From: Schmidtea polychroa
Taxonomy: Eukaryota
Assembly (NCBI GenBank): GCA_044892525.1
Contig: CM097885.1
Coordinates: forward strand, 173,538,001-173,602,000
DNA length: 64,000 bases
Direction of reading: 5' to 3'
The translations under genes were made by a program, and so were the position numbers. The notes beneath the pieces were generated by a model. That model worked only from the letters and a program-made list of their open reading frames with translations. It did not search any database and was not told the origin of the DNA. This document shows positions 6,901-54,264 of the stretch, one piece after another. The first letter of the stretch is position 1. Each line of letters begins with the position of its first letter.

Positions 6901-9900
6901 CGAATATACAGTCATTCTTATTGTGTTCAGTATTAAAATTATTAATTAAATAAAAATCAGAATCAAATTTTCGACTGGGGAAAAATCAACATTAACATTA
7001 TCAAACAAAAAATCAACCAAACAATCATTACATTCAGCATTTAGGGTCCTCAAAAAATGATCATTGCTTACATGTTATTTATCGCTCCTAACATATCCCT
7101 GTTTGGAGCTTTGGTATTTCCCTATATTTCTGACTGTCCATTATAGTCGTTTGGTTCGTCATTACATACTGCAGCTACGTTTTCCCCATTGTTTCGATCA
7201 TTTTCTTGATTATAATTTCTATTGTATCTATTGAAATTCCCATGGTTTTGATTCAAAGTTCTTTGCAATCTTATCTCGTAGTGATTCAGTTTTTGAAAAC
7301 ACTGAAAACTTAAATGACCTGCTTTACCACAAGACAAACATCGAATATTTGAACATTCCCGACGAATATGACCAATTTCACAGCATGCGTAACACTTTTG
7401 AAAATTAATCTGACCTTCAATTTTGATGCCATTTTGAAGTATTTCATTGAAAAATCTTTACTGAAATTTCTTTGATAATCTACTCGTCCTTCTTGGAATT
7501 GATTTCTTAGTAAATTTGAAAATTCATTTTTTTATCACTTTGATTTTGCTGATTTCCATAAATATTTCTTTTCTCATTGTTATTCTATCGACCGTTTTCA
7601 CAATTGATGGGTAGGAGGTATTTCCAACGGCTGAAACTTGTTGTATCTTGGATTTATCTTCATCCATTTTCTGTAAAATTCTTTTAATATATTTATTTTC
7701 CATTGGACCTCAATCATTTTTTAAATCTTCATTCGATAATTTTACTTTCAGCAAATCTAGTAATTTCATATCTCTTTATTTCACGTTTTTCTTCTTCATT
7801 ATAAAGACAATGTTTTAGGAAGAACGTTGTCAAATTTGACATTGTTAGCTTGTGCTTCAAGATTTTCTGAACACCTTTCTCACTCTTACTAATGTAAGTT
7901 TCTGCATCTTCTTTTTTTCGATAATTTAGCAACTGTTCCAAATCCTTAGCTAAATCCAAGTTGTCTTCGAATGCTAATCTAAGCCTTTTCGCATAATCTC
8001 CCTCATCTGGAATTTTGTCATATTTGTTGCGGCAATTTTCGTCCAAATAAGGTTGAATAATTACTCATCTTTGACTATTGTCTAGCTGAATAATTGAAAA
8101 GTATGCTTCAATCTTCTCAATAAATTCTTCCAAACCGTCTCCAATTGAATAAATTTTTTAGCTGTGGGAGAATCCGTAATAATTCCTGAGTTGAAAGCGT
8201 GGTCGCCATATAAATAACTTGAGAAATTCCAAAAACTTTATTTAAGAAATTATGGTACTATTTATAGTACCCGGTGTGCCGACACTAACACAATCAGCAA
8301 TAGCTTATTGGGAAATAATAATCAGTGACATAATTTAAGGACCAAGACAATCAAAAATAATAAATCACACATGCAAGCATTACATATATAGGGTAAAGGT
8401 TAGGGAAATCAAATATCCCATTATAATTACATCACGATGAACAAGAGCTCAACCCATTAACAAGTTTCTACAAAGCATTATCCTATAAGTGTTATTGAAG
8501 ACGTCGACGCATATTTTACTAATATTGGTAATATACCACCAGCAATATTTAATATAATTTATAATGTACTATTTAAAAGCTAGAAACTATATAGCAAAAA
8601 AACTTTTTCAATAAAAAATAAATTTTACCGTTTTTTAATACCCATAATTCACAATTTCCCTTTGTTGACATTTTTTGTTGGTCCTTTCAAAAACCTAAAA
8701 TATGGGTTCCATTGTAATTATAAAAAAAATTCAGTTGGATATAGAATTTTTTTTGACTAAAATCAACTTTCATATGACAATAGATTGAAAAAAACTAATA
8801 TTTAACAAAATGTGCCTCAAAATGCTAATGGTTATCCATAAGAATCAGTGATACGATCCAGCCGGTACGCCCGTACTGGGTCTTAACAATTTCTAGTAAG
8901 TGCGTATGGATTTATAATTTTACAAATCAATAAAAATTTGGAAAGCGTACTGGTTCCAAAGAAAATTGAATTCCATCACTGATAAGAATTTCATTAAAAT
9001 ATTGTAAGCTAACAATATCAACTTTTATTTTTGATCACTGATGATAATGAAAAAAAAATTGAAGAAAACTATTTGAAAATATATAAAAAAATTTACTCCT
9101 TCAATGAAAACAGAGCTAATTTCTTTTTCAGTCCACTTTCCATTTGATTTTCAAGCGCGCTGCGACCCAAAAAATTTGTATCTGTTTTTAATTTACAAGT
9201 AAATCCAAGCCCAGCTTCTAACGGAGTATCATCGGATCTTAGATCTGCATGCCAATGACGATAACCTTAACGTGTTAACATAATTTTTAACATGACTTTT
9301 ATTTGAAAATATAATTGAAAATTTAAATAAAATTAAAATTAAATTAACTTTATAAAGAAAGTTGTTTGATTTTATTTTTCGTGCTATTTGACACTAATTT
9401 AATATTTTTATTCACTTAAAAACAGAAAATAGAACATGTGGATGATTTATTTTCAAAATTTAATAATTTAAACTTAATATCAGTGATCTAACAGTGCCAT
9501 AAATTTATGTGTTTTAAAAACTGTTAGCAAGTCTGTTTAAATTCTTTTGTTCGAAAATAATTATTATAACTAAATTGGTTATCATTATTATTTAAGTCGT
9601 CTGACTCCATCTTATAGTTAAAATCCAATGTTTTTCATGTTAATATATCAAGAAATTTTCTTGAGATATTAAAAATAATTCAAATATTTTAGATACAAAA
9701 TCAGTATTCTAACTCAAGATTTCATAGTTGTTATATTTTCATAGTTTTTAATAATTCTTAAAAAATATTTTCTAACACTTGCATAAAATTGTTGAAACTA
9801 TTTTTAGAAAATTTGATGAAGTCATTTAATTTATGTCTTTTAACTTAAAATTGTTTTTGAAAACACTTTTAAAATTATTTAACAACATTTTTGATTTTAA

Positions 9901-12900
9901 GCAATAAAATTTCAATCGTTTTTATAATTATGAGTCTAAAAAATAATTAACATTATTAAGAATTTTCAAATTCTTTTTCATTTCAAATTCATTTTCTAAA
10001 AACAATGTTCATAGCGATTTTAGCAATAATTATATATTATATAAACCAAATTTTGAATAATCTTTGGAGAATATTTATAATGACTTTTCACATTCTATGC
10101 GATTTCAACATACTGCAATCATACAAATACAATTTAATATATTATATTATAAATTATATAAAGCCATATTTATATTAAAGATAAATTTATTGTTAGATTT
10201 ATCTCACAAACATTATGTTAAAAAAGAAGTTAAAAGAAGTAAATTTGACAAAAAATAGGTTGGTTAAACAGCAAAAAAACGAACCTTTCTCAATACTGAG
10301 AGAATCTATAGCGCGATATCCAGCATTGACTAATCCATGAAGTTTTCCAACTTTTGTTATTGAATGATAAATGCTTTTGGCATAATCCTTCGGAATGTGT
10401 AATTCCCATCCCATTTCGCCAACAAACGATAATCGTAATGCACGACATGGCACATCATTAATTTGTATTAGCTAAATGAATTTGTGATTATAAAACAATA
10501 TTATAAAACAATATGCCACAAAATTATCGGGCGATCAATGATGACATAATTGATGTGTGTAAATGATCGAGGTTTCAATGATGTGATTCAATTATAAAAT
10601 GTTTATTTGTTGTTTCAATTAAGTTGCGACAATTTTAAATATTTACTTTATTTAGGTATATTTTTAAAAATAACATTGATGGCACTTTAGAATTTAAAAT
10701 TTATTACATTATTCGATCAAAAACGAGTGGACGAATGCTGAGTTGAACGAAGACTAATTCGATATGCAGAGTCAACTTTCAAGATTAAAGTCAGATTTTT
10801 ATTAGACGTTTAATTGATAGACAGTCGAGATATCCTTCATACAGTTTTAAAAAATATCAATATTTTTTTAATAAAAAATTGGGTTCGAAAGCGGTTCCAA
10901 AATATCGGTTTTCAAATTTTATCATTAAAACCAAAATCGAGCTCTTAAAACCGGTTTTTAACGATTTTTAGTTTTAGTTGCCTCTGAAAATTAGATTTTT
11001 AAAAAACTTTTGTCATTACAAAATGTTATCGATTACTTTCGAGCAAAAAAAATTTATATCTGTCAATGTGTTCATTAATACTAATGTATGACTAATTTTT
11101 CGAATCACATCAATTATATTGTTTTATGCAATAATGTTAGTATAAAGTTTCCATAATAATATTAATTTAAAAATTCTTCATTGTTTAGTCCAGTGTTTCT
11201 CAAACTATGGGTCGCGACCCATTTTTGGGTCGCGAAAGAATTTTTGGTGGGTCGCGATGACTTATGGAAAGATCTACAAATATAAATTTTGGAAGTTTAA
11301 GCCTTTTAAATTTATTTAATCTTTGTCATGTGGGTCGCAATAAAATTTTTGGCATGAAATGTCAAAAATTTGGGTCGTGATCAAAAAAGTTTGAGAACCA
11401 CTGGTTTAGTCCGTCTGAAATTTTTTTTTCTATCGTAGTATCATTCCAAAACGTTTTCAATCACTCCTGAGCAAAAATATAACTATTGAATCATAATTCA
11501 AAACTCTTATAAATTTGTGATAGGAGTTCTAGGTGATTAAAAATGATTTTAAGAAAGTAATATCTCTCACATTTTAATAGAAAAGTATTAATATTTATCA
11601 ACCTTACTATGTCAAAAATGAAATCAAACGTATGGACTTACTTTGTTCGGAAGAACAAAGATGAAGCTCAATGCACCAAGTGTCAAAAAAGAGTTATCTT
11701 CATAATCCAGCAATGTTTACTGAAGAGTCAAACTAAAGAGCTTTTCCTTTTCCAAAACAAGTATTGAAGAAGTATAATGAACGAACATACAAGAGATTAT
11801 TTCTAGAACACCGCGAGATCAAAGAAAAAAATGTTGCCTCAACGAGTTCAGTCTTCGATGGAGATGATCAACTCATGATTGAGTATATTCGTGCGATTCA
11901 TAAATTATAAAATCGGTTTTAATCAGTTTTGATTAATGCGTATCAGTTAAATTCGGTTTTGAATTTATCGATTTGTTACGAACTTTACGAACGAAGAAAA
12001 TAGTGACTTGTAGTAAATAGGTATGTGTTAATCTTTCATTTGAAAATAATAAATCAAAAAAATACTAATACAAACTTTTTGAGTTGAGAATGGGAAGGCT
12101 TCATTGGAAAAATCGGTATCTGATAACGACTGTAAAATCTGTCGACTAAGAAGAAATTAAACTGTCAATTATTAATTCATTTTATATATACATAAATACA
12201 GTAGGATCTGTCCAAAAAGTACATAGTATTACAAGTTCACCCACAAAAAGAAGTGCAATGTTAAGGAACTCGACCGGGAAGGGGCACGTATCTGTCTTTT
12301 AGCTCTGTGGTTTAAGTACACCATTAATAAGAACACTTTAAGATATTTCCCATTCCAAAATATATATTAAATGATTACTATTAAATGTTTATTTTATGAA
12401 TTCTATACGCCAAAATTTATCCAAATGTACAAGAGAAAGGTTAGCATCAATGTCAAACTTAAAATTATAAATTATCTTGATATTGATGACAGTATCCGTG
12501 AACTAGCTGAGCACTTCAAAGTCAATAAAGGAGTCGTTCTAAATGCCATGAAACAAAAATCATATAAAATAGACAAGTTGAACACTAATACGTCAAGAAT
12601 TTGTGATAACATCGAGGTAAACATCTTAATTTTGTGTTTGTTCAAGGTTTCTCTTTCTCAGCTCTATTGCTCGAAGCAAAATCACTCGAATTAAATATTG
12701 CTTTGGTTTCTGATACAATGATGAAAGCGTCTGATGGCTAGTTGAGAATTTAAAGAAGTGTCACCACATTTTGTTCAGATTGATAAGCGGACAGTCTGAA
12801 ATGTTGATAGTGATTCGTCAAAAGAATGGAAGAAAGGTTTTGTAACCATTTTCAAATACTGCCATTCCAGCAATATTTTCAACATTGGCGAAACAGGTTA

Positions 12901-15900
12901 CTTTTTTTCGTTTTCTACCTATTAAAACATTAGTTATCAAAAAGAGGAAACCTACTCAAAGACAGAATAACTATCGTCTTCGCCTGGTCTATGAATGGGG
13001 AGAAGAGGCCACTATTAATTATTGCAAAATTAAATTAACGACGATGTTTTCGCAATTACGACATAAACAAGTTGTCATATGTCTAGAGACTATTAGTAAA
13101 GTAATAAGGCTTTGATAATCAATCAAATATATAACGAATTCCTCTTGGGTTTCATTACTCGAATGAACCGAACCAAACTCAAGGTGTTATTGTTGACAAT
13201 CCTAAAGTGTATACTGTAGATAATCTGCAAAAGCAAATTTGGAAAACGTAGAGACTACATATATAGCACCAAATGTTTTACAATTTTAGACGCAATCTTA
13301 GGAAAAAGTGAACTAATCAACCCTTCAAGTATGTTTCCAAAATTGTGAATTTATTTTCTCAGATACAGTTTCAAGCAACTTAAAAGATCCTCCTGAGACA
13401 GAGAAGCAGGAGTTAGTTCCCAAACTCGGGGAAAGAAAATAAGCTATCTTTGAAGAAGAGCTTTAGTGCTTTGAAACGGTTAATGAAGATAATGTCGTGG
13501 AATATCTTGTAAGGAAACATATGTATTCAATTAATGATTGTGAAATAGATCCAGGTGAAGAACCATTGTAGGATGCAATAAAATTTAAGTCTTCCAACAT
13601 TTATTTATTAATTACAATTTTTAATTTTCTCGTTTTTCTGACAATTGAAAAAACTGAGGCGTGGTATTTATTAATATTGATGTAACTATTATTATTAGTA
13701 TTATTTAAAACTTTTCCTACAATAATTTTTTTAAAAAGTAAATGCGAAACATTAACAATTAACCATTGCTAATGAGTATTTTCTATGAATGGAAATTTTG
13801 TGCTTTAGCTGTGATCCCTTTAGGGAACGTTGATTTAATTGTTTTATAACATTTACTTGCATAAGATAGAATACAATTAATATTGGTGAAAGTGACATAA
13901 CTTTTTGGATTCAAATTAATGAAAACATAAAATAATATTAGATCTTCACGAAGCTTATAAAGTTAAAAATTGTTTAAATCAGGTACTGAAACCCGGAAAA
14001 AATTGGGTTCAGGTTCGGTCCAGGGTGCAAGTTCGGGTTCAAAATTTTGAAAAAAAGCCCTATCTTTTATTTATTTTTCAAAAATTTTTCATTTAATTTA
14101 ACAGTTAAAATATTTTTTAAGTTCTCTTCTGTTAGATTTGCTCGTTGTGGTGATAGCATATATTTTAAAGCTGAAAAAGTGCTCTTTACGCTTACTTGCG
14201 TAACAGGCACTGCAAATATTATTTGGGCCACCTGATATAGTAAAGGCGTTGTATTTTATGTTGCTCCCAAAATTCTAAAATACTTTTTTCTTTTGCCAGC
14301 CTTGGATAATTTTCGTATATTTCTATCTAATTTTTAACTGAACTATCAATGAAAGATGTGGAATTTATATTTTCCGAATTAATTTGAAAACACTTTTCTT
14401 TCTTTAAAACTTGTTCAAGAATATCCTCTTCTTAATATAGAATTTAACAAACAAAAAAACACGTTTAATGATTAATAATGATTATTATTAAACTTTAATC
14501 ATAAAAGCTCAAAATTCCAAATAATAATAAAAACAAAATCGTTATGAAGCATTAATGAACACGAGAAACTTTACTATTTGTATTTTGTATCGTAGTAAGC
14601 TACTTTAAGAAAATAAGCTAGGCAACATTAACGAATACGAAAACTTTACTACTTTTTTGTCCTCTATTTTTCTAAAAAAATTCACAGAGTAAATTTTTAA
14701 AATTTTTTAAATTTATGAACCCGAACCTGCATGAGTTTCTGGGTTCAACAGGGTTCGGTTTCAGTCCCTGGTTTAAAAAAGAAATGTTTGAAACCACATT
14801 CGTTTGAAACTTACCTTTCATTGATCTAAATAAGTTCTAATAATTTATTTTTAAATAATCAATACTAATTTAAATAAGAATTCAAATAAAATTAGTAAAA
14901 ATTACAAACCTTTTAGGACCTTGAATACTAAGTAAAACCATTTCTTCAGACACGTCTATTAATTTACAATTAAATTGTTTTTCCTCAACTATGTTATTGA
15001 TAAAACTTGAAACATACTGATAAACAGCCCCACCAATCGCTAAGTAATACGTAGTTCCCTGTAAGCTAATAAATAAAAAAATTGTTTCTTAGCATTAAAA
15101 TAGTCAATAAATACTCGGGATTATGAACTCCTTTATTTGGTAGTGAAATGTCGATTTCAGTGAAAGTGAGGTCGGCTTCAGTCCCACCAAACTCATTACA
15201 TATGCATGTATATATAATAGATCCGATTGGTTTGTTAGAATTAGCTGTAAAAATCCAATCGACAGCTTTTTTGGTATCAGGCCCAGTAAGATAGAATTTA
15301 CCGAAATATGACATGTTAAATATAGCTGCATGTTCTCGGGTGCTCAAGCACTCTTTGCGTATCTAACATTTAGAAAAAGTAAATAATAAATAAAATATTT
15401 TTGGAATAAAAATATAGCTGAAACTATGTATGACTGTATGTTTCTATAATATACACCTTTAGTAGACAGATTGGTCCCCGCTGGCTAAACCCCGCTTTCT
15501 GAGGAAAACTTTATTAAGCTAAAAAAGTTTGCTTAATATTTTTAATAAAAGTTTTATGTGGGTCACGGATTTTTTTTAGTTTTTCACGAAATTTTTATGC
15601 TTTTCATAGAATTTTTATGTTTTCACGTCAAATTAATTAAATTTTAAATAAGTCAGGTTGACTTTAAAACACAGTCCCCGCTGGAACAATATATACTATA
15701 TAGTTTTATTAGATATACGTTATACGCACACGCGCACACACACATAAAAACATAGTCCTCACTGGCACAATATAAACTTTATAAACCATTAATAAAAAAT
15801 AAGTAGGTCATAAAGATTTAATAAATAATATAACGCATATTCATAAAAACATTCCCGCTGGCACAATATATACTATATAGTTTTATTAGATATAGTATTT

Positions 15901-17009
15901 AATAAGAATCTTGACTATGAATCAGCAAATATATCAAAAACATCGATATATTAACTGATTCATAGTCTAGCTTCTTAATAAATACAATGTCAATGGAAAA
16001 GAAATCAGTGGCGAAATTTGAAAAAAAGTTCTTATTATTAGTAGATATAAGTTATACACACATGCTACACAGTTTAAAGAAATACACCAACACTATCGAA
16101 ATTATTCATGTTAAGTCAATAAATAACATCTTTTATTTAAATATTGTCGATTTTATATTGATTATTTGAGTGTTCCTGACAGTATTTCGACGATAATTGG
16201 TTCATTTCGAAGGGTTCTCTCAGAGTATCTGAATTCTTATTGTGATGATCCAAGGTATTGCAAGGGTATCGCAATGGTCATTTTGAAGGGTTTTACGGAC
16301 GGTCAAAACTTATATAATCATGCGCGCATGTATATTCCTAATGAACAAATTGTATTTTTCTTACCAATTCGCGCTTTTTGATAATGCTATTTTTGAATTT
16401 TTAAACGTGAAAAACTGGTGATTTTGGGTTCCTATTCTAAACTGATGTCCAGAAAATAATCGCATTATTGTTATAGCAATCTAGATATGATTAATTGTTA
16501 ATCCCTGTTCCTGGTAATTTTACCCTTTTAGCTCTCGTTATCAATTTACTTACTAAAACACTATAACACTTTTGGCTTAACCCTTTCCAGCCCAGTGATT
16601 CCAAATGGAATCATTAGTTAAAAACTCAGTTTTTTTCTCTTTACTACCAAAACGGTTGGCAGTAACTAGTGAGAACTATAGTAAGATATGTTTTTAACAG
16701 TTGGCACAATTTTTATTTTAAAAAATGAAGTAAAATATTTTTATGATAAAATAAGTAGTTTTGGTACCTACTTACTGCATATATATTTTTTTTTGTTTTG
16801 AAAAAATTTGGGCTGGAAAGGGTTAAGAAAACCCATTCCCTTGCTCTCATCTTTCAAATTTCCGATGACAGAGCCAAGGTTCATCGAATATAATGGGTGA
16901 GAAGGATCGTAATTTGAGGTATATAATAGGTTATCGGTAAAAATCGCCAGTAGTAATACATCTAATTTAAATTTTTTTATTTCTAAGAAGAAACTGTCAG
17001 TGTCTCCGG

Positions 17010-17059
<50 letters not shown>

Positions 17060-20000
17060 CAATTAAATTGTCGTCTGTATTTCTGAAATTCATTATATTA
17101 GACTTGGTACATCCGCAATTTAGACAGATCTAACACTGATTCTTCAATGTAGCTAGATCTGCCTTTATTCAGATGAGAAACAATCAAATCACCATCAATT
17201 CTGATATATAATGTTCCAGCGGAGACTATGTATTTTAAAGTAGAGTTTTATATAAATGTAATTTATTGTCTTGACATGAATAATTTCTATAGTGTGCTAG
17301 CAAGACTAATGTTTGAAGGTGTGTGTGTGTGTGTAATTAATATATAGTGTTGGTGTATTTCTTTAAACTGTGTAGCATGTGTGTATAACTTATATCTTTT
17401 TTACGAGTGTGTGTGTGTATGATATACTTATTTATTAAATCGATATGGCCTACTTATTTATTTATTAAAACTATATAGTATATATTGTGCCAGTGTGGAC
17501 TATGTTATTATGAGTATGTGTCTGTGACATACTTATTTTATATTCTGTGCCAGCGGGAACTATGTTTTATAGTCGATTTGAACTACTTAAAATTTGATTA
17601 ATTTAACGTGAAAAACTTAAAAATTCTGTAAATTATTTAATATATTTAATAATTTTCCACAAAGGTAACATCCGTAAATAATGCCTTTCTGAAAGTCTGT
17701 AAGCTATCCGAGTAGCCATATTCTAAGTAAATGACAATCCTTCATTAACACGACTCGTTTTTGTGTGCCTGGTATGAGTAGTAATATTCTGTGTGAGTCT
17801 GTGTGCGTGTGGACATGTGCGCATGCAGCATGTTGAAGGTTTTGGTGACCATTGTTCCCATTGCGGTTCATATTTGCACTGCAGACGTTCATTATAAACT
17901 GCAATATGTAAATAACTGCCTAACTGGAGACTGTGTAGCATGTGTGTATAACTTATATCTTTTTTACGAGTGTGTGTGTGTGTATGATATACTTATTTAT
18001 TAAATCGATATGGCCTACTTATTTATTTATTAAAACTATATAGTATATATTGTGCCAGTGTGGACTATGTTTTTATGAGTATGTGTCTGTGACATACTTA
18101 TTTTATATTCTGTGCCAGTGGGAACTGTTTTATAGTCGATTTGAACTACTTAAAATTTGATTAATTTAACGTGAAAAACTTAAAAATTCTGTAAATTATT
18201 TAATATATTGTCAGAAGTAAATATAAAATATTTGAACATAGCATAATGATATAAAATTTTAAAATAGATTATAACTAAAACTCGAATGAAAGAAAATGGA
18301 CAGATAATATAAAAAAATGGACATGCCTAAAATTCTAAAAAATCAAAACGTACCACATCATGACTTTTAGGGAAATTAAAAGTGTAGTCCCCTGCCAGCA
18401 CATCTCTATATTCGTAATTTTTGTGTTGTTCCTTTTCATAGCTTCCGTAGAAATCATACGGCAGTAACTAAGTAAATATAATTAAACATTTAAATATCAC
18501 GAAAACAAAAAATACCTCTGGTTTAGTATTACAATACCAACCCGGTCTTTCAAAACCTTGTCGCTCTTGATACATACAGCCTTGCTGTAAAAGTTCCTAT
18601 ATATTAACGAAATTTAATGGATTTCGTTCATTTTTTTTAAAACACTCAAAACATGGCAACGACTTTAGATATAAAGCCATACCAGAAATAGAAAATTAAT
18701 GAAATAAAAACCCACGTTTAATCAATACTGTGCAAATTTGATTAATTATATTAATTATTAACATTTATTAAATGAAAATATGCGTAAGGACAATATTTAT
18801 ATTTATTTATTAGTCATATTTCATTCATAGATTTATACCCGGCCTACCAAAAGTCTCCAGTCAGGCTGTTATTTACATATTGCAGTTTATAATGTACAGC
18901 AATAAGAACAAATGTCACAAACACACACGAATACTGAATGTCTGTAGTGCTGAGAGGTTAGTACTTCGTTATATTAACTTTCATCTGGATAACAAGGCGC
19001 ACTTTTGCCAGGAAATCAGTGGATATGTGTGACCATTCCTCATGCAGATGCACTTCCAGTTTGGAGGCGTTTCGGGCAATGTAAATCCTTTTGCGAACTC
19101 GTCTACCAAGGACGTCCCACAGTAACTCAATAGGATTCAGATCAGGGCTTTGTGGAACCCAATCCAAAACGTTGATGCTGTGCTGAAGAAAGAATTTCTT
19201 CATAATGTGCGAAGTATGGATTGGTGGATTATTTTGTTGGAAAATGATTTCTGGGAGAAAGGGAACAAGCTCATTTTCCAGAATGGCACGGTATTCCACT
19301 TACATCATGTGATTGCTGTACTTAACTAGGGGGCCAGTTCCACGAGCTGAGAAAAGACTCCAAAACATGATGAAATCGTTCTCTACACGACGCCAGCAGA
19401 ATTGCTGTCCATCAGATTTGAAAATAGTAAAACGTGATTCATCACTCCAAATGACTGAGCGCCATTGTTCTGCTGTTCAACTCCTTCTCTCCCGGCACCA
19501 CTTCAAGCGACAACGACGAATTGTTTTTGTAATCAAAGGCTTCCTTGTGCAGTATCTGCTATAGAAACAATGAAAATGCAATGAGTGTCGAATGATGAAC
19601 ATGCTGGGATGCACAGGGCCAGTGTTAAATGTGGACACTAACTTGGACAGGGGAAACCAACGATGAGCCACCACAAGTCGTTTCAGCTGCCGTTGTGTAC
19701 GGATGCTCAAAAGTTTAGAGCGGCCTGAACGTTGCTTGTTGACATGTGTCTGCTCCTGGGGTACTTCCTCAGGAAGTAGTTAATAGTTCCTTTGGGATGG
19801 TCAGTCAATGCAGCAGTTTCACACTGACTTTTTCCACAAAGGTAACATCCGTAAATAATGCCTTTCTGAAAGTCTGTAAGCTATCCGAGTAGCCATATTC
19901 TAAGTAAATGACAATCCTTCATTAACACGACTCATTTTTGTGTGCCTGGTATGAGTAGTAATATTCTGTGTGAGTCTGTGTGCGTGTGGACATGTGCGTG

Positions 20001-23000
20001 TGGACATGTGCGCATGCAGCATGTTGAAGGTTTTGGTGATCATTGTTCCCATTGCGGTTCATATTTGCACTGCAGACGTTCATTATAAACTGCAATATGT
20101 AAATAACTGCCTAACTGGAGACTTTTGGTAAGCCTGTGTTATCAATATATGATTGTAGTGTGATGAATTAACGATTTCCTTAAATATTTATGTTTGAATA
20201 ATATAGTTTTCTGCATGATTTGCAAATGATTTCTAATTCTAACAGTATGAATGACTTGGTTTATTGAATTCCCTGTTTATATATTGCTCTACATTAAAAG
20301 TGTTTCGCTATATATTTTGTTAAATAAGAGAATATTTTGAATTAATAAAAATTAGCATCAAAATTTCTATTTTGGATGTGTAGGAGTGAAGTTATTAAAA
20401 ATCATTCGCATATTTAATTATTATGAGGCACTCACAAATATGACAAGAATTTCTTAATGCCTTATTATTTTAGTATAATTAAGATCAGAATTGAATAATT
20501 TGTATATATAGTGAGTAGCACCCTGCCAACACCTACATTAATTAATCACTTAAATTCCCCGACATTCCACTAATTACTATCACTTATAATCTCCCAACAA
20601 ATATTTCTTTTAAAATTATTTTTTTAAAGTGATAATTTTAAATAAATGCAATTAATACTCATCCATTCTTATCCACCTTCATCTTATCTATGCCACTTCT
20701 CAGTATTTACCTCCCATAATCCATTAATGAATAATTCTATCACTAATTTTCATCCATTTGAATTTCATTATTAATTTATCATAGAATAATGAATAATTCT
20801 TACCATAATAAAGATTCTTACCATCTTCATTGTTAGTTTTTTATCTATGTTATTATAACTATCTTTCGATTTTACGATGCTTTCCATTTTAGAATAAGAT
20901 TTTTTTATCCAAATTTGTGATAATTTGACTGATTCAATGATAGATTTGATAGAGTTAATTCCTTTTATTATATATACTGAGTTTATCTGACAAGATGTTT
21001 TGTCCCCTTATGGGTACTGGTCATAAGGGTATTGGTCCTAAGGGTACTGGTCGTAAAGGTACTGGTCGTAAAGGTACTGGTGTGTTCTAATGATTTTATT
21101 TGGGCAAATTTGGGTGTTAAAGGCATTCATTGGTAGTTTTTAAAGAGTTGATGTTAGCGGGATTTAGTAAATATCTATCATTTTCGTGAATTTTATGTTG
21201 ATTTTATTGTTAATTCTAAGATAAATTTAATTAATTTCTTGATAATTGTCTGTATTTTTATTGACTTATTTTTTAATTTAATTTTAAATAAAAATTAATT
21301 TTAATGGCAGTTAGGTTATTAATCAAGTGATAGGTTAAATTTTGATGATGATATTGAATTTCAATTTCAATTTCATGTTGAATTTCATGAATTTCATGTT
21401 GACTGAAAGAATATTTTAAAATTTAAGGTCTTAATGGTGATTAATTTAAATGATAAATTTAATTAATTTCTTGATAATTAGATGTATTTTACTGGCTTGT
21501 TTTTAATTTTAAATAAAAATTAATTTTAATGACAGTTAGGTTAATAATCAAGTGATAGGATTAATTTTTGATGATGACTTTGTAATGACATTGAATTTGA
21601 CTAAATAATTTTTTCAATAATTTTCTAAGAATATTTCAATTTACACATTGATGAACTTAAATATTAAAAAACATAAGCTAAAAAACCAGTTAACTTTATC
21701 AAATTTACTTGAAAATTATTGTGGAATATACTGAAATCTGTGATTTAGTTTGCTATTATTGCTTGAAAATGATTGGCTGAATTGCTGAAGAATTATGATC
21801 AATCAATATATATCATCTCTAGTTAGGTATTTGATGGATAAAATATTTGTAGAAAATATTGAATTTTGATCTTTTAGTGGGCTCTTACTACATAGTTACC
21901 AAATCATTTTAATGAAAGAATATTTGGTGTCTGTAACAATTAAATAAAATTCAAATTTTTGAAGTTCTCTAAGGATTTTAAGAGGATTGACTGAATTAAG
22001 AGGGATATAACTTCAAGTGTGTAGAATTAAGGGATATAGTCGGTTAGATATTGATGTTTAAAGGGGTAGAAATATTTGGTAAAAGATCGGTTAAGATGGG
22101 AATATATTATTTTAAAGGCGGATATAGTCGGTTGGATTTAATGAGGAATGGGATAAGGTCGGAATATATGATTTTTTGGGGATATAGTCGGTTAGATTTA
22201 ATGGGGGATCGGTTAATATGGGAATCTTTTGAATATTTAAATGGGTAATGTTGATAAAATATCATGTTTTAAGGGAAATTGCAATACATTAGTCAATTTT
22301 GAATCAATAATAATGTGAAATTATATCGTTTTGTTAAGTTGTGATGAATTCATTGTAAATTAATTTAGATATCTGGTTTAAAACAATGTTTTATTAATTT
22401 TCTATTAATTATCCAGAGTTTAATTAAGTAGTGTTAATGACAATAAAATCTTTACAGATAATTGGGATTGATATCAACTTTAAATTATTTTTATCTTTAT
22501 GTAAATGTTATAGGTAAACAAAAGTTGAGAAATATTGACTTAAAAAAGTTGTACATCGACTAAAGATGTCGACTAAATTATAACTGATTTTATCAATAGA
22601 TTTTATAAATTGTTTAGAGTTAATGATTTTAGAAGATCTTAGTGAAATGTGTGATTATAGGAATTAAAGATATAGTTATAGTCATTTAAAGGGATTTTAA
22701 GGAATCTTATTAGTCTGACGGAAATATATAACCTTTTAAGGATATTTATCGAAAAAATACTAATCTTTAAAGACAGAGATATTTCAGGGAAATTTGATGG
22801 TTTTAGATGACTTTATTAGAGAATTCGCGCCAAATTAATAATAGATGATTTTAGTGAAATATTTGTAATAAGAGTAGATATATAGTCATTTAGAGATTTT
22901 AAGGAATATTATCAGTCTGGGGAGAATATATGATCTTTCACAAGTACTTATCATTAAAAAACCAATCTTTAAATATTGATATATTTAGGGATCATTTTAT

Positions 23001-49600: not shown

Positions 49601-49724
49601 TACTCTACTGTTTTTACTCTTTTTGTTACTTTTAACAGGTCTGATCGAGATTTAAGTGTAACCATGTATAGGCAGAATTTAATTCTCTACAACATGGCGC
49701 AATTAAAACTTTAGTTTGTCGCTT

Positions 49725-50020
49725 TGTGTGTAATACACACATGTTTTTACGATAAATTTGTATTTTTCATACAGTTAACGTAATTTTCTTAGGATTTTAT
49801 TCATATAATATATAGATAAAATTTAATTTTCTATAAAATAGCTTGATTAAAATTTATGTCTCGTATGTTGTGTGTAATACACACATGTTTTTACGATAAA
49901 TTTGTATTTTTCATACAGTTAACGTAATTTTCTTAGGATTTTATTCATATAATATATAGATAAAATTTAATTTTCTATAAAATGGATTGATTAGAAATTA
50001 TGTATCTTGTTTTGTGTGTG
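49725..50020. repeat. 144-bp tandem duplication, paralogous to about 39890-40195
   Basis: TGTGTGTAATACACACATG... starts at 49725 and 49869; a partial third unit starts at 50013. Confidence 0.85.
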
Positions 50021-50580
50021 ACAAGCGATGTATCTGCAATTAATTCTCCTGACATTGTTGTTCCAGATTGTCTCATCAAAGAAATAGAAGATCATATTCA
50101 ACGAATGGGGACAGTAAAAATCCAATTTGGACTTTGTGCAGAGTTTATCAAAGAGGATGGTTAAATTAAAAAATGGTGTTTGTCGAATAAAGCAATTACA
50201 ATGTCATCTTCATTTATTAATGATGGAATTGAAAAATTAAAAGAAAAGTTGGAGAAATACACTCAACAAAGTAGTGGGTGGAGAATTCATAAAATATTAG
50301 AAGTTACTATGATTTTAACTAAATTATCAGACATAATACATGTATCTGGTAAGTTTATTTACATTATTATATATATAAATCAAGATATTTACTTAGGTTC
50401 AAGTTACATTAAAACGCCAAATTACCTGAAAAACTGTCAGGCTTTAGTTAATGTTCAAAATAATGATCAATTCTGCTTTTTATATAGCATACTGGCCGTA
50501 TTACATTATGATGACATAAAACATCACAGAGAAAGAATAATGAAATATAATTTAAGTGGTAATATATATTTATATCATTC

Positions 50581-50640
<60 letters not shown>

Positions 50641-53504
50641 GAGTTAAAATGGAAATCAGATTGGTTTCCAATGAAGTTGGTTAACATTTGCCAATTTGAA
50701 GCAATGAATCCAAATCTAGCGATCAATGTTCTCAAATATAATAAAGATCCAATTAAACAAAAAACTAATGATATTTTCAAGAATCCGTTCGTTGACTTGG
50801 TATATAGAAGTACTTCGACGGGATCTCAATTATATCTCTTATTGATTGAAGAAGGTAATATTTCCTTTAATCATTAAAAACTTTAACTAAATTTTAGAAT
50901 TAAATTATCACTTTTTGGCTGTAACTAATCTCGATCGACTGCTCAATTACAGAAATAGAGTAGAAGGAGTCAGAATCCAATCACATTGGTGTCATACGTG
51001 TCTTCATGGGTTTCAAAAACGTCCTGCTTTTGAAAGACATATAGGTCTTTGTAGGAAGAATGTGGAGTGGACGACTCTATACTCAATGCCAGAGAATAAA
51101 TATATCGAATTTAAAGACTGGAGTAAAACTATAAAACAGCAGTTTGTTGTCTACGCGGACTTTGAATCAATATTACCTCTAGATGACAAGCACTTCCAAA
51201 AACATGAGCGATTTTGCATCTGAATTTGTGCTTCTTCATCAAGGTTGTCCGATTCGAAATGAAACATTTGTTGGGAAAAACTGTATCATTCAGTTTATAC
51301 AAGCATTGGATGATATAGCTACAGACATAGTTTATCCGTGGTATAAAATTAATGGATCGAAGGAAATGATGGAACTCACTTGGGAACAGCAGGAAGAATT
51401 TACGAATCAAACTCATTGCTACCTTTGTAAAAAGATTATCAATATACCTGTTCGAGATCATGATCATTTTACTGGTCAATATCTCGGAGCAGCGTGTCAA
51501 GATTGCAACTTGGCTAGAAGAATCAATCCGTCTTTACCTGTTGTATTTCATAATCTTCGTGGATATGACATTCATCATATATTAAAATATGCAATTGGAA
51601 AATTCCCCGATTGGAATTTAAATGTTATTCCTCAATCAACAGAAAAGTTTCTCACACTTACAGCGACATCGAAAGGCAGAAGAATTAGATTCATTGATTC
51701 TTTACAATTTTTAAATAGCAGCTTGGCAAATTTATCAAAAAATTTACCATGTCTTCCACTGACCTCAGATGTTTTCGAATCACAGATGATGACTTGTAAA
51801 ACCATTTTTCCTTATGATATGGCTACATCAATGGATGTTTTACAGTCAATAACAGAATTACCACCGATTTGGGAGGGAGTTAGTGAAGAAGATTATATAC
51901 ATGCAAATCGAATCTGGCGACAATACAACTGTGAGACACTGCTAGATTACATGCTAATATATCTCAAGTTGGATGTTTTTCTGTTGGCCGATGTTTTTGA
52001 AGCTTTTAGAGAAAAAACATTTGACGAAGATGGACTTGAGGCTCTATCGTTTGTTTCCATACCCGGATTAAGTTGGGCATCAGCTATTAAACAGTTACCT
52101 GAACCGGTAGAACTTATTCAAGATCCAGAGCTTTGCCGTTTATTTGAAGCTGGTATTCGTGGTGGAATGACATTTATCAACAAACATCATGTTGAAGCTG
52201 ATGAATCAACACAAATGTCATACTTAGATGTTAATAATTTATATGGATGGGCGCTGTCGCAAAAACTTCCTGTTGGGGAATTTAGATGGTTAGAAGATCA
52301 GACTGAAATGAATGGTATTGTTGAAAGATGTGCAAATGGGGATGAGTTTGATGGAGATCGTGGATATGTTCTAGAGGTTGACATCGTCATTCCTGATAGT
52401 ATACAAGATAAGCTAGATGATTTACCTATAGCTCCTGAGCTTTGTTTTCCGCCTGGTAGTAAAATTGAAAAGCTGTTGTTAACTCATGAGCCTAAGAAAA
52501 ACTATGTAGTTAATGGTAGAGTTTTGACAGAGTGGTTGAGTTACGGCGCAAAAGTCACAAAAGTTAATCGTGCTGTAGAATTCAAACAAGTGGCTATTTT
52601 CAAAGGATATATTGATTACAATACCAAAATGAGAGCAGCTAGTACGGATTCGTTTCAGCGAGATTATTATAAGTTAAAGAACAACAGTTTATACGGTAAA
52701 ACTGTGGAAAACTTGAAGAAACGTATAAATTTGAGATTATGCAACAAAAGCAAAAGATTGATAACTTATTGTAGTCATCCTATGTTTCGTCGTAGCATCA
52801 AGATTGCGGATGATCTCATTGCTGTTATACTCAATAAGGAAATTGTGTGTTTAGATAGACCAATGTATATTGGACAAACCGTACTTGATTTATCCAAACT
52901 TCGCATGTACCAATTTCAATATAAAGAACTACAGAGTTATAGAGAAGAATTCAATTGTCAAATTAATATCGTAGCTGGTGACACAGATTCCTTCTTTTTG
53001 GAGTGTAAAAATGTAGATTTACGCTTACAACTATATCCAAAAATGATTGAAGATGGGCTCCTAGATACTTCAAATTATCCAGTGACCGATCCGTTGTTCT
53101 CTGATAAAATCTGTTCTGTAATCGGGAAAGTTAAGGATGAGAATAAAGGAAATCAATATAAAGAATGGGTGTTTCTTCGACCCAAGTGCTACTCACTCCA
53201 AGGCGATAAAAACACTCTAAAAGCCAAAGGAATAAGACTTACAAATTCTAATATTACACATGAAGCCTATAAAAAAGTGTATACTGATGGTGGAACAGTG
53301 AGCATCCCACAAAAAAGAATAGGAAGTGTCAATCATCAGTTGTATACTTTCATGACAGACAAATGAGCTCTCCAATGTTTGGATGATAAAAGATATTGGT
53401 TCAATTCTAATGAAAGCTATGCCTACGGTCACTATAAGATTCGTCAAATGCATATTGCAACTGCTATGTCTAGAAATGAATGCAAATCGAAACAAGCACT
53501 TTAA
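50020..53504 (+). pseudogene. polB: Protein-primed family B DNA polymerase (Polinton/Maverick/adintovirus type), three introns, disrupted
   Basis: Motifs: SSGWRI, GSSYIKTP..VNVQNNDQFCFLYSILA, ExoI VYADFES, DHDHFTGQYLGAACQDCNL, ExoII VFHNLRGYD, FIDSLQFL, ExoIII LKLDVFLLADVF, motif A YLDVNNLYGWAL, motif B KLKNNSLYGK, motif C AGDTDS, C-terminal DDKRYW...AYGHYKI. Introns 50349-50396, 50559-50641 and 50855-50897. Lesions: TAA at 50162, a frameshift near 51210, and TGA at 53364 followed by a conserved in-frame tail to TAA at 53502-53504. Confidence 0.92.
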
Positions 53505-54264
53505 CAATTAAATTTATGTGAATAATAAAATATATATTGTGAATAATTTGTCTTCGTTAATTAAAATATGTTTTATCATTTAATAATTCATTTGTCCAAT
53601 TATTTTAGATAATTAGTTTCAAGTAAGAAATATTATTTTCGTGTTTATTTTATTTATTTATTTATTTTTTCCGAAATATTAATATCCGGTTTATCTAAAA
53701 TTAAATCATCGTTTTATTTTATAATAAGTTAAATAATTTCTAATTAAAATTTTATTCGAATTGAATAATTACTAACTAAAATTTTATTCAAATTGAAATA
53801 TTATTGTTACAATTTACACTCTTGTTAGAATATATTAAATGTCAATGTAAAATAATAACAATAAAAAAAAATAATAATCATAATGATAAATAAAAAAAAA
53901 TAAATAAATAAATAAATAAAAATATTAAAATTAAAAAAAAAAATCAATTAAATAACGTAAGTAATTAAAATAAAATATTAATAAATAATTAATTAATTAA
54001 ATGTAATAAATTGAAAATTAACTAAAGTAATTAATTAAAGCAAAAACATAATAAAATAATTAATTAAATGTAATAAATTGAAAATTAACTAAAGTAATTA
54101 ATTAAAACAAAAAACATAATAAATAAAATGATTCGATTGACCTATATTTGATCTGGACATTGGGATGACCTTGAAAGTGTCCTGGAGTCCTCATTATATA
54201 CTACTAATTTGATTTAGGAAAAGTAAATTTAAATTATTATTTACCGTTTGAATTTTAGCCCAAA

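Follow-up and report, generated by a model that had tools for sequence, protein, structure and literature searches.

Polintons or Mavericks (eupolintoviruses, Alpha adintoviruses) code for a protein-primed DNA polymerase, polB, with an N-terminal extension, and are bounded by AGT..ACT ends, inverted repeats at the termini and target duplications of 6 bp (PMC8097293, PMC8502044, PMC6431247). Here we consider a polB gene of this kind in a 64,000-nt stretch of Schmidtea polychroa DNA (assembly GCA_044892525.1, contig CM097885.1, positions 173,538,001 to 173,602,000 of the forward strand; hereinafter the window). The gene and the element carrying it share the above traits with Polintons; unlike these, polB appears to contain internal introns, the element lacks a recognizable integrase, capsid, ATPase or protease, and its inverted repeat can span its whole length.

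Intact vertebrate Mavericks have open reading frames (ORFs) without introns, consistent with Kapitonov and Jurka 2006 (PMC8097293), and in nematode Mavericks the core genes are intronless, with introns only in cargo genes (10.1101/2022.07.12.499685). Polinton-like viruses have group I introns (PMC12220804), and the polinton-like elements of dinoflagellates carry introners (PMC12166617), likewise a host-type intron-forming sequence inside proviruses. In dinoflagellates, the inserted sequences are copies of introner transposons of the host, their age being similar or younger (PMC12166617), whereas the six introns considered here are not clearly alike, are fixed in their family and lie between exons that appear to be under selection. 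The accessible portions of PMC10748475, PMC11296320, PMC6431247 and PMC8532177 contain nothing on spliceosomal introns in polB. A literature search whose range excluded Repbase reports and supplements returned no account of Polinton polB genes with such introns, nor of palindromes that carry polB alone.

In adenoviruses, the E2B genes for protein-primed replication, with mRNAs for the preterminal protein (pTP) and Pol, are expressed from spliced nuclear mRNA, the start codon being acquired via a small upstream exon. The family described here resembles them in that its gene for protein-primed replication is probably spliced and its start codon may be reached through a small upstream exon; however, adenoviruses splice a leader to separate pTP and Pol frames, whereas here five introns would lie inside a single fused region comprising a terminal-protein (TP) domain and a vOTU domain, both predicted. 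Copy-back defective genomes are mirror-image genomes arising by template switching, and have the same mirror-image structure as our family. Transpovirons and other helper-dependent linear elements are small, with inverted ends, their own replication protein and no capsid (10.1101/2024.03.18.585575), all of which recur here. Unlike transpovirons, the present elements encode a complete protein-primed PolB (pPolB) with no Tlr1-like helicase fusion and are integrated in the nucleus with target duplications.

The polymerase gene and its probable introns

The region 51183-53366 of the window matches DNA_pol_B_2 (PF03175, E 5e-30; Pfam), with an additional Endonuclease_7 match below cut-off, and the polymerase motifs DVNNLY, KLKNNSLYG and GDTDS are present. 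The profile search gave no match to a helicase family, the protein instead showing full exonuclease and polymerase motifs. In a structural model of the 57%-identical homologue P0003 (mean predicted local distance difference test score, pLDDT, 88.7), residues 378-1122 match the phi29 polymerase (Z 24.6, root-mean-square deviation 3.3, 524 aligned), a match also recovered by Foldseek. The domain match and the phi29-like fold of the homologue bear out the identification of a Polinton-type protein-primed polB in the first-pass annotation. The published pPolB architecture is TP-vOTU-Exo-Pol (10.1101/2024.03.18.585575), and an OTU domain is also described in PMC8502044; we take the name of the terminal-protein domain from the former source by position and topology. 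The Cys of the predicted vOTU protease is conserved in 64 and its His in all of 67 homologues. The three intron junctions of the window copy map to residues 170, 226 and 299 of P0003, all upstream of the polymerase core; on the published architecture, intron 1 would mark the transition from TP to vOTU, with introns 2 and 3 between the Cys and His of the predicted vOTU and intron 3 four codons upstream of the His.

Re-reading of the sequence returned the coordinates and lengths that the first-pass annotation had given for three GT..AG segments (Table 1). All three are, as it claimed, in phase 1 after a G, and the exon pieces translate to the polB motifs it had quoted; the 80-nt host SARDH intron to which it had compared their sizes has GT..AG ends at 45178-45257 on the minus strand. 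We regard the introns as very probably real, and the three segments as likely host-type (U2) introns in a protein-primed DNA polymerase gene. They are probably three of six, the annotation having missed three further introns upstream; it also missed that the window copy is defective and that its gene belongs to a polB-only, often palindromic element.

A search of the window's 781 Mb genome gave 61 scored matches at 97-98% identity, and 52 copies could be anchored from 56 fetched loci, with both palindrome arms counted, so that not all are independent. In detail, about 60 of at least 671 genomic places were examined. GT/AG is conserved at all three sites across these copies, being retained in every measurable case for introns 1 and 2 (46/46 and 41/41) and in 51 of 52 for intron 3; the first 30 loci show the same pattern, with one intron-2 copy having an AC end. 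Intron lengths range over 45-171, 15-320 and 42-43 nt, respectively, covering all residues modulo 3 (only two of them for intron 3), and the exons between them measure 162 nt in 36/41 and 213 nt in 40/41 copies. Genome-wide exact-flank patterns detect intron 3 at at least 671 places (338 on the plus and 333 on the minus strand), no copies without intron 3 (gap 0-30 nt) or intron 1, and no clean loss of intron 2. Seven places have an internally shortened intron 2 of 15-27 nt that retains GT..AG; at L171-L173, L167 and L168 it has shrunk to 15 nt, in frame and stop-free, which is probably too short for splicing.

For the comparison with other polB proteins (2,709 homologues at E 1e-20, the best 120 of which were listed), the exons were read with an X at each junction and extra homologue residues were counted within 8 columns. 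The exons align end to end with unbroken homologues across the three junctions, with zero extra residues in 66/72, 15/75 and 65/82 homologues, the two extra residues of 52/75 homologues at junction 2 representing a nearby indel. The maxima are 4, 3 and 8 residues, such that no junction shows the 14-28 residues that coding segments would need. In the same genome, the polB of a second family, B, runs through the three corresponding sites as a single 1,321-codon frame. A part of the homologue contigs may be cDNA; P0003 and P0005, however, are on 15-19 kb contigs, and the contig of P0002 has a TATA-like box 485 nt in. Homologue P0006 (59%; one of 67), a metagenome protein, has a 15-residue hydrophobic insert with a G-N start and an L-G end exactly at the intron-3 site, with the appearance of a phase-1 intron read through in frame. 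Searching for split N-terminal pieces among proteins yielded two matches, neither informative on introns. For DNA of relatives with introns, a metagenome scan matched nothing beyond the contig of the query itself, and viral contigs gave no match.

The upstream part of the gene was read from L046, a natural non-deleted copy used as a yardstick. Its segment starting at 1239 matches the N-termini of homologues (P0002, E 4e-9) and is joined to the rest via GT..AG segments at 1467-1508 and 1566-1606, both phase 1. This segment has no in-frame Met after the upstream stop; an acceptor lies at 1238, with candidate donors upstream at 1189 (which would split the start codon), 1126 and 1140. The ends of the three upstream introns are retained in 34/34, 36/36 and 37/38 copies, the upstream exons are 228 nt in 32/33, 57 nt in 35/35 and 444 nt in 35/38 copies, and all internal exons are multiples of three. 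A full copy is likely to contain six introns, each in phase 1 and located upstream of the polymerase core. These are mutually not clearly alike: the best of 15 pairs matches at 17/25 (p 0.005, not significant after correction).

In a selection test over 69 loci, variants were scored against the commonest codon of each column. Among those found in at least three distinct copies, the five upstream exons account for 25 silent as against 6 replacement changes (dN/dS 0.06), none of them in the 57-nt exon, and the overall figures are 107 silent versus 53 replacement changes (dN/dS 0.13). For rarer variants the corresponding ratios are 0.68 and 0.60, and there are 39 stops. The ratios of 0.06-0.13 among shared variants point to purifying selection on the exons and, therefore, to a spliced protein kept functional in the lineages that spread. 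RNA evidence was sought in assembled contigs from 4/16 runs with library types not on record, X1 being guessed to be RNA. In one X1 contig, the final letters of the upstream exon, TATTGATTGAAGA, directly precede L046:2570, the shared AG and the next exon, where genomic DNA has the intron tail; this would be the spliced form of intron 3.

In a quickly built, midpoint-rooted tree of 54 rows, with homologues of <790 residues left out and with long branches at famC, P0106 and P0107, the family of the window copy (hereinafter family A) nests among single-frame homologues. The internal introns are therefore most simply read as gains in a lineage with intron-free relatives. This fits the proposal in the first-pass annotation that a lineage had gained host-type introns; its other suggestion, an adenovirus-like spliced gene, suits at most the first, leader-type intron and not the rest. 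The homologues nearest to family A in the tree, P0008 and P0013, begin downstream of the intron-3 site on contigs of 18-22 kb. In families B and E (L124:954-1050; L191:7207-7360) the long polB frame starts at an AT-rich acceptor in phase 1, seven codons upstream of a conserved Cys, the same Cys as in family A. The leader intron may therefore be ancient, and the other five, all internal, may be specific to family A. Family E polB is also found in a divergent pair.

The polB-only element and co-resident Polintons

Family A has at least 671 copies in the genome, with termini of the form AGTAG..CTACT (692 exact terminal motifs, some from chimeras) and Polinton-type terminal inverted repeats with AG..CT ends. 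Among 20 elements with both ends found, 17 are flanked by 6-bp target duplications (6/6 from 8 pairs, 10/11 from 34 regions and 1/3 from 4 pairs), all of them perfect. More than half of the first 100 listed copies (56) occur in divergent pairs 3.4-7.7 kb apart, with no other close arrangement, giving palindromes of 9-15 kb with an outward-pointing polB in each arm. The arms diverge by 0.05% within 11 elements, as against 2.5% between elements; 57 element-private codon changes are present in both arms and 14 codons differ between arms. In the 17 bounded elements, which measure 5.1-15.0 kb, arm sequence makes up 82-100% of the length; a tblastn search of them with the family B and C integrase, ATPase, capsid and protease gave no match. 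Because no integrase was detected in these 17, we regard family A as a Polinton derivative and not an autonomous member. Two widely spaced polB pairs (C1 42.27 and 45.23 Mb), considered as a full element, were rejected as nested or unrelated insertions.

At L188:2594-5078 and L189:865-3338, an arm of a 93% subfamily has its centre motif in common with two ORFs, one AT-hook and one RING-finger. When tested as an integrase, the L189 AT-hook ORF gave no such match; RING genes cluster near C1 52.5-52.7 Mb, which suggests gene capture. Several family A arms (L081-L120) adjoin pieces of family B or C elements, which hints that insertions were nested or that Polinton families have recombined.

Family B, with at least 102 copies in the genome, encodes an rve integrase and an A32 ATPase and has a TBP-like gene. 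At its ends, AGTAGTA and CTCCAGGACA occur at the same offset as in family A. Its TBP-like gene is short (PF00352, E 2e-16) and head to head with the ATPase (L147:1699-2292, L054:8818-9294). At L053-L055:1561-28693, a palindromic element without genes, with inverted flanks and an intact outer 6-bp duplication, holds a full family B Polinton (7270-22523) at its centre. Family C (L061:3065-5802) has a double-jelly-roll capsid, an integrase ORF with a phospholipase-A2-like domain and a distant polB (29%). A Pox_A32 scan of the genome returned 13 weak places. Mobilization of the polB-only family in trans appears quite likely; the case for family B as the integrase donor is evenly balanced.

Proposed mechanism and alternatives

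The account that we consider probable is that of spliced introns in the polB of a Polinton-derived, fold-back-replicating, polB-only element that borrows the integrase of a co-resident Polinton. Host RNA polymerase II would transcribe polB outwards from the central motif, a likely promoter/enhancer, and the spliceosome would excise six short introns, three of which are absent from the window copy. The spliced product would be a terminal protein-vOTU-exonuclease-polymerase chain of ~1,235 residues, from which the vOTU may release the terminal protein to prime at the AGTAG ends. The displaced strand would then fold back or switch template near the centre, so that one arm is copied onto the other, and an integrase supplied in trans would insert the product, the best candidate being that of family B, whose ends AGTAGTA..CTCCAGGACA have the same layout. 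More tentatively, and at somewhat less than even likelihood, the family could be a nuclear satellite replicon of a distinct kind: a fold-back transposon that copies itself, encodes the polymerase alone after losing integrase and capsid, retains this intron-rich polymerase under selection and parasitizes the integrase that a full Polinton of the same genome provides. Its introns would then mark a virus lineage turned permanent nuclear resident.

Several observations weigh against this account. The splice junction comes from one contig, with a 13-letter overhang, in a run of unrecorded library type, and contigs of X1 and X2 also run unspliced into introns 1 and 3; most contigs are unspliced, and the listed joints are all from X7, none coming from the runs guessed to be RNA, with 54 joints and 622 loose ends beyond those listed. 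The donor of the first intron is represented by candidates only, and introns -1 and -2 vary little, their support being frame and homology. In the selection test, 29/69 loci were chosen by similarity to the window ORF, which biases the last exon towards intact copies. The fold search did not confirm the vOTU and TP domains, its results being filled by the polymerase core, and Atlas gave no named match. As for the element, 3/20 elements with both ends found have no target duplication, one of them having inverted flanks; the ends of families A and B match only in a 7+10-nt motif, and the two families are not sisters in the tree; and an autonomous A-type parent may lie elsewhere in the genome, only ~60 of the at least 671 places having been examined.

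The arms would also become alike if the introns are real and gene conversion, rather than fold-back replication, had homogenized them after insertion. This is unlikely, although it would explain why element-private changes, stop codons included, occur in both arms and why rare variants are nearly neutral, as expected of post-insertion mutations. However, all 17 target duplications are perfect and the insertions are therefore young; a defective mother copy copied in trans yields the same pattern; and many asymmetric copies with a truncated second arm also have duplications. Fold-back copying is the probable source of the likeness between arms. Somewhat less likely still is that the introns are real but the family descends, as debris, from an autonomous Polinton with introns, the integrase and capsid block having been lost in the copies examined and the parent supplying its own integrase. 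The number of places examined, the additional AT-hook and RING ORFs beyond the centre motif of the 93% subfamily, the A-type ends beside family B and C gene blocks and the fact that intron-split genes would escape ORF lists all leave room for such a parent. Yet no integrase-like match lies inside the 17 elements bounded by target duplications, the chimeras of A ends and C genes are tandem duplications with one flank rather than separate insertions, and purifying selection acts on polB within polB-only copies.

Far less probable is that the segments are not spliced at all, being AT-rich insertions in decayed copies or being bypassed by frameshifting or read-through. The prevalence of unspliced contigs and an intron 1 that is often 48 nt and stop-free would agree with this, but the same segments recur in the same places with invariant GT/AG in hundreds of copies, introns 2 and 3 run into stops when read unspliced, and the exons on both sides are under selection, with one junction contig in addition. 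Moreover, the lengths fall in all frames and therefore fit no fixed frameshift rule. That the palindromes are assembly or amplification fold-back artefacts, as the near-identical arms and the one element with inverted flanks might suggest, is the least probable reading, given that 7 palindromic elements have direct duplications of 6 bp and flanks that are unique and unrelated, that the centres are variable and not palindromic, and that a few differences exist between arms.

The window copy and wider significance

The copy in the window is a dead, 5'-deleted and frameshifted member of family A, fused at ~49460 to the end of another Polinton family (Table 1). The deletion has removed the TATA region and the first three introns with their exons, and the last exon has a frameshift near 51210 and an early stop at 53364-53366. 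The flanks of the composite, CTCATC and AATTTG, are unlike, and there is thus no target duplication; the end at 46998, tried as the left end of the window element, was rejected because it has no duplication and belongs to the other family.

Table 1. Parts of the composite element and of its polB gene (window coordinates).
Feature	Position	Strand	Remarks
End region (AGTAGG.., repeat-rich) of a different Polinton family	46998..49460	+	Fused to the polB arm; not of the polB-only family
Family centre motif, TGACGTCA / TGAGTCA repeats	49460..49600	+	Palindrome axis in double copies
144-bp tandem repeat, variable copy number	49649..49995	+	
Deletion junction	49995..50019	+	~1.25 kb of other copies missing
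3' part of predicted terminal-protein domain exon	50019..50348	+	In-frame stop 50162-50164
Intron 1, 48 nt, phase 1 (likely)	50349..50396	+	GTAAGT..TTAG; G+C (GC) 0.15; at predicted TP/vOTU boundary
Exon, 162 nt	50397..50558	+	Conserved Cys of predicted vOTU protease
Intron 2, 83 nt, phase 1 (likely)	50559..50641	+	GTAATA..TTTAG; GC 0.05; TA microsatellite of variable length
Exon, 213 nt	50642..50854	+	
Intron 3, 43 nt, phase 1 (likely)	50855..50897	+	GTAATA..TTTTAG; GC 0.16
Last exon, coding for a zinc finger, an exonuclease with endonuclease-VII-like insert and the polymerase core	50898..53505	+	
AT-rich terminal region	53506..54205	+	Ends ..CTGGAGTCCTCATTATATACTACT, the family terminus

A host sarcosine-dehydrogenase-like gene (44799-45305, minus strand) starts ~1.7 kb from the composite element, and a retrotransposon gag-like ORF (PF03732; 54259-55125, plus strand) directly follows the element end. 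Fragments of hAT-like transposases lie at 37534-39043 (plus) and 42393-42851 (minus), with a weak DUF659 match and Dimer_Tnp_hAT.

The core genes of Polintons are regarded as free of introns; on that basis, pipelines call elements intact, or they interpret gaps of this kind as decay (PMC8097293). Active lineages that bear introns would therefore be missed by such pipelines. With introns gained in a gene with intron-free relatives, and present in hundreds of young copies, both the gain and the tolerance of introns become directly measurable. The mirror-image, polymerase-only copies, in turn, offer a readable record of Polinton replication, the mechanism of which has so far been modelled rather than shown, and point to an integrase acting in trans.

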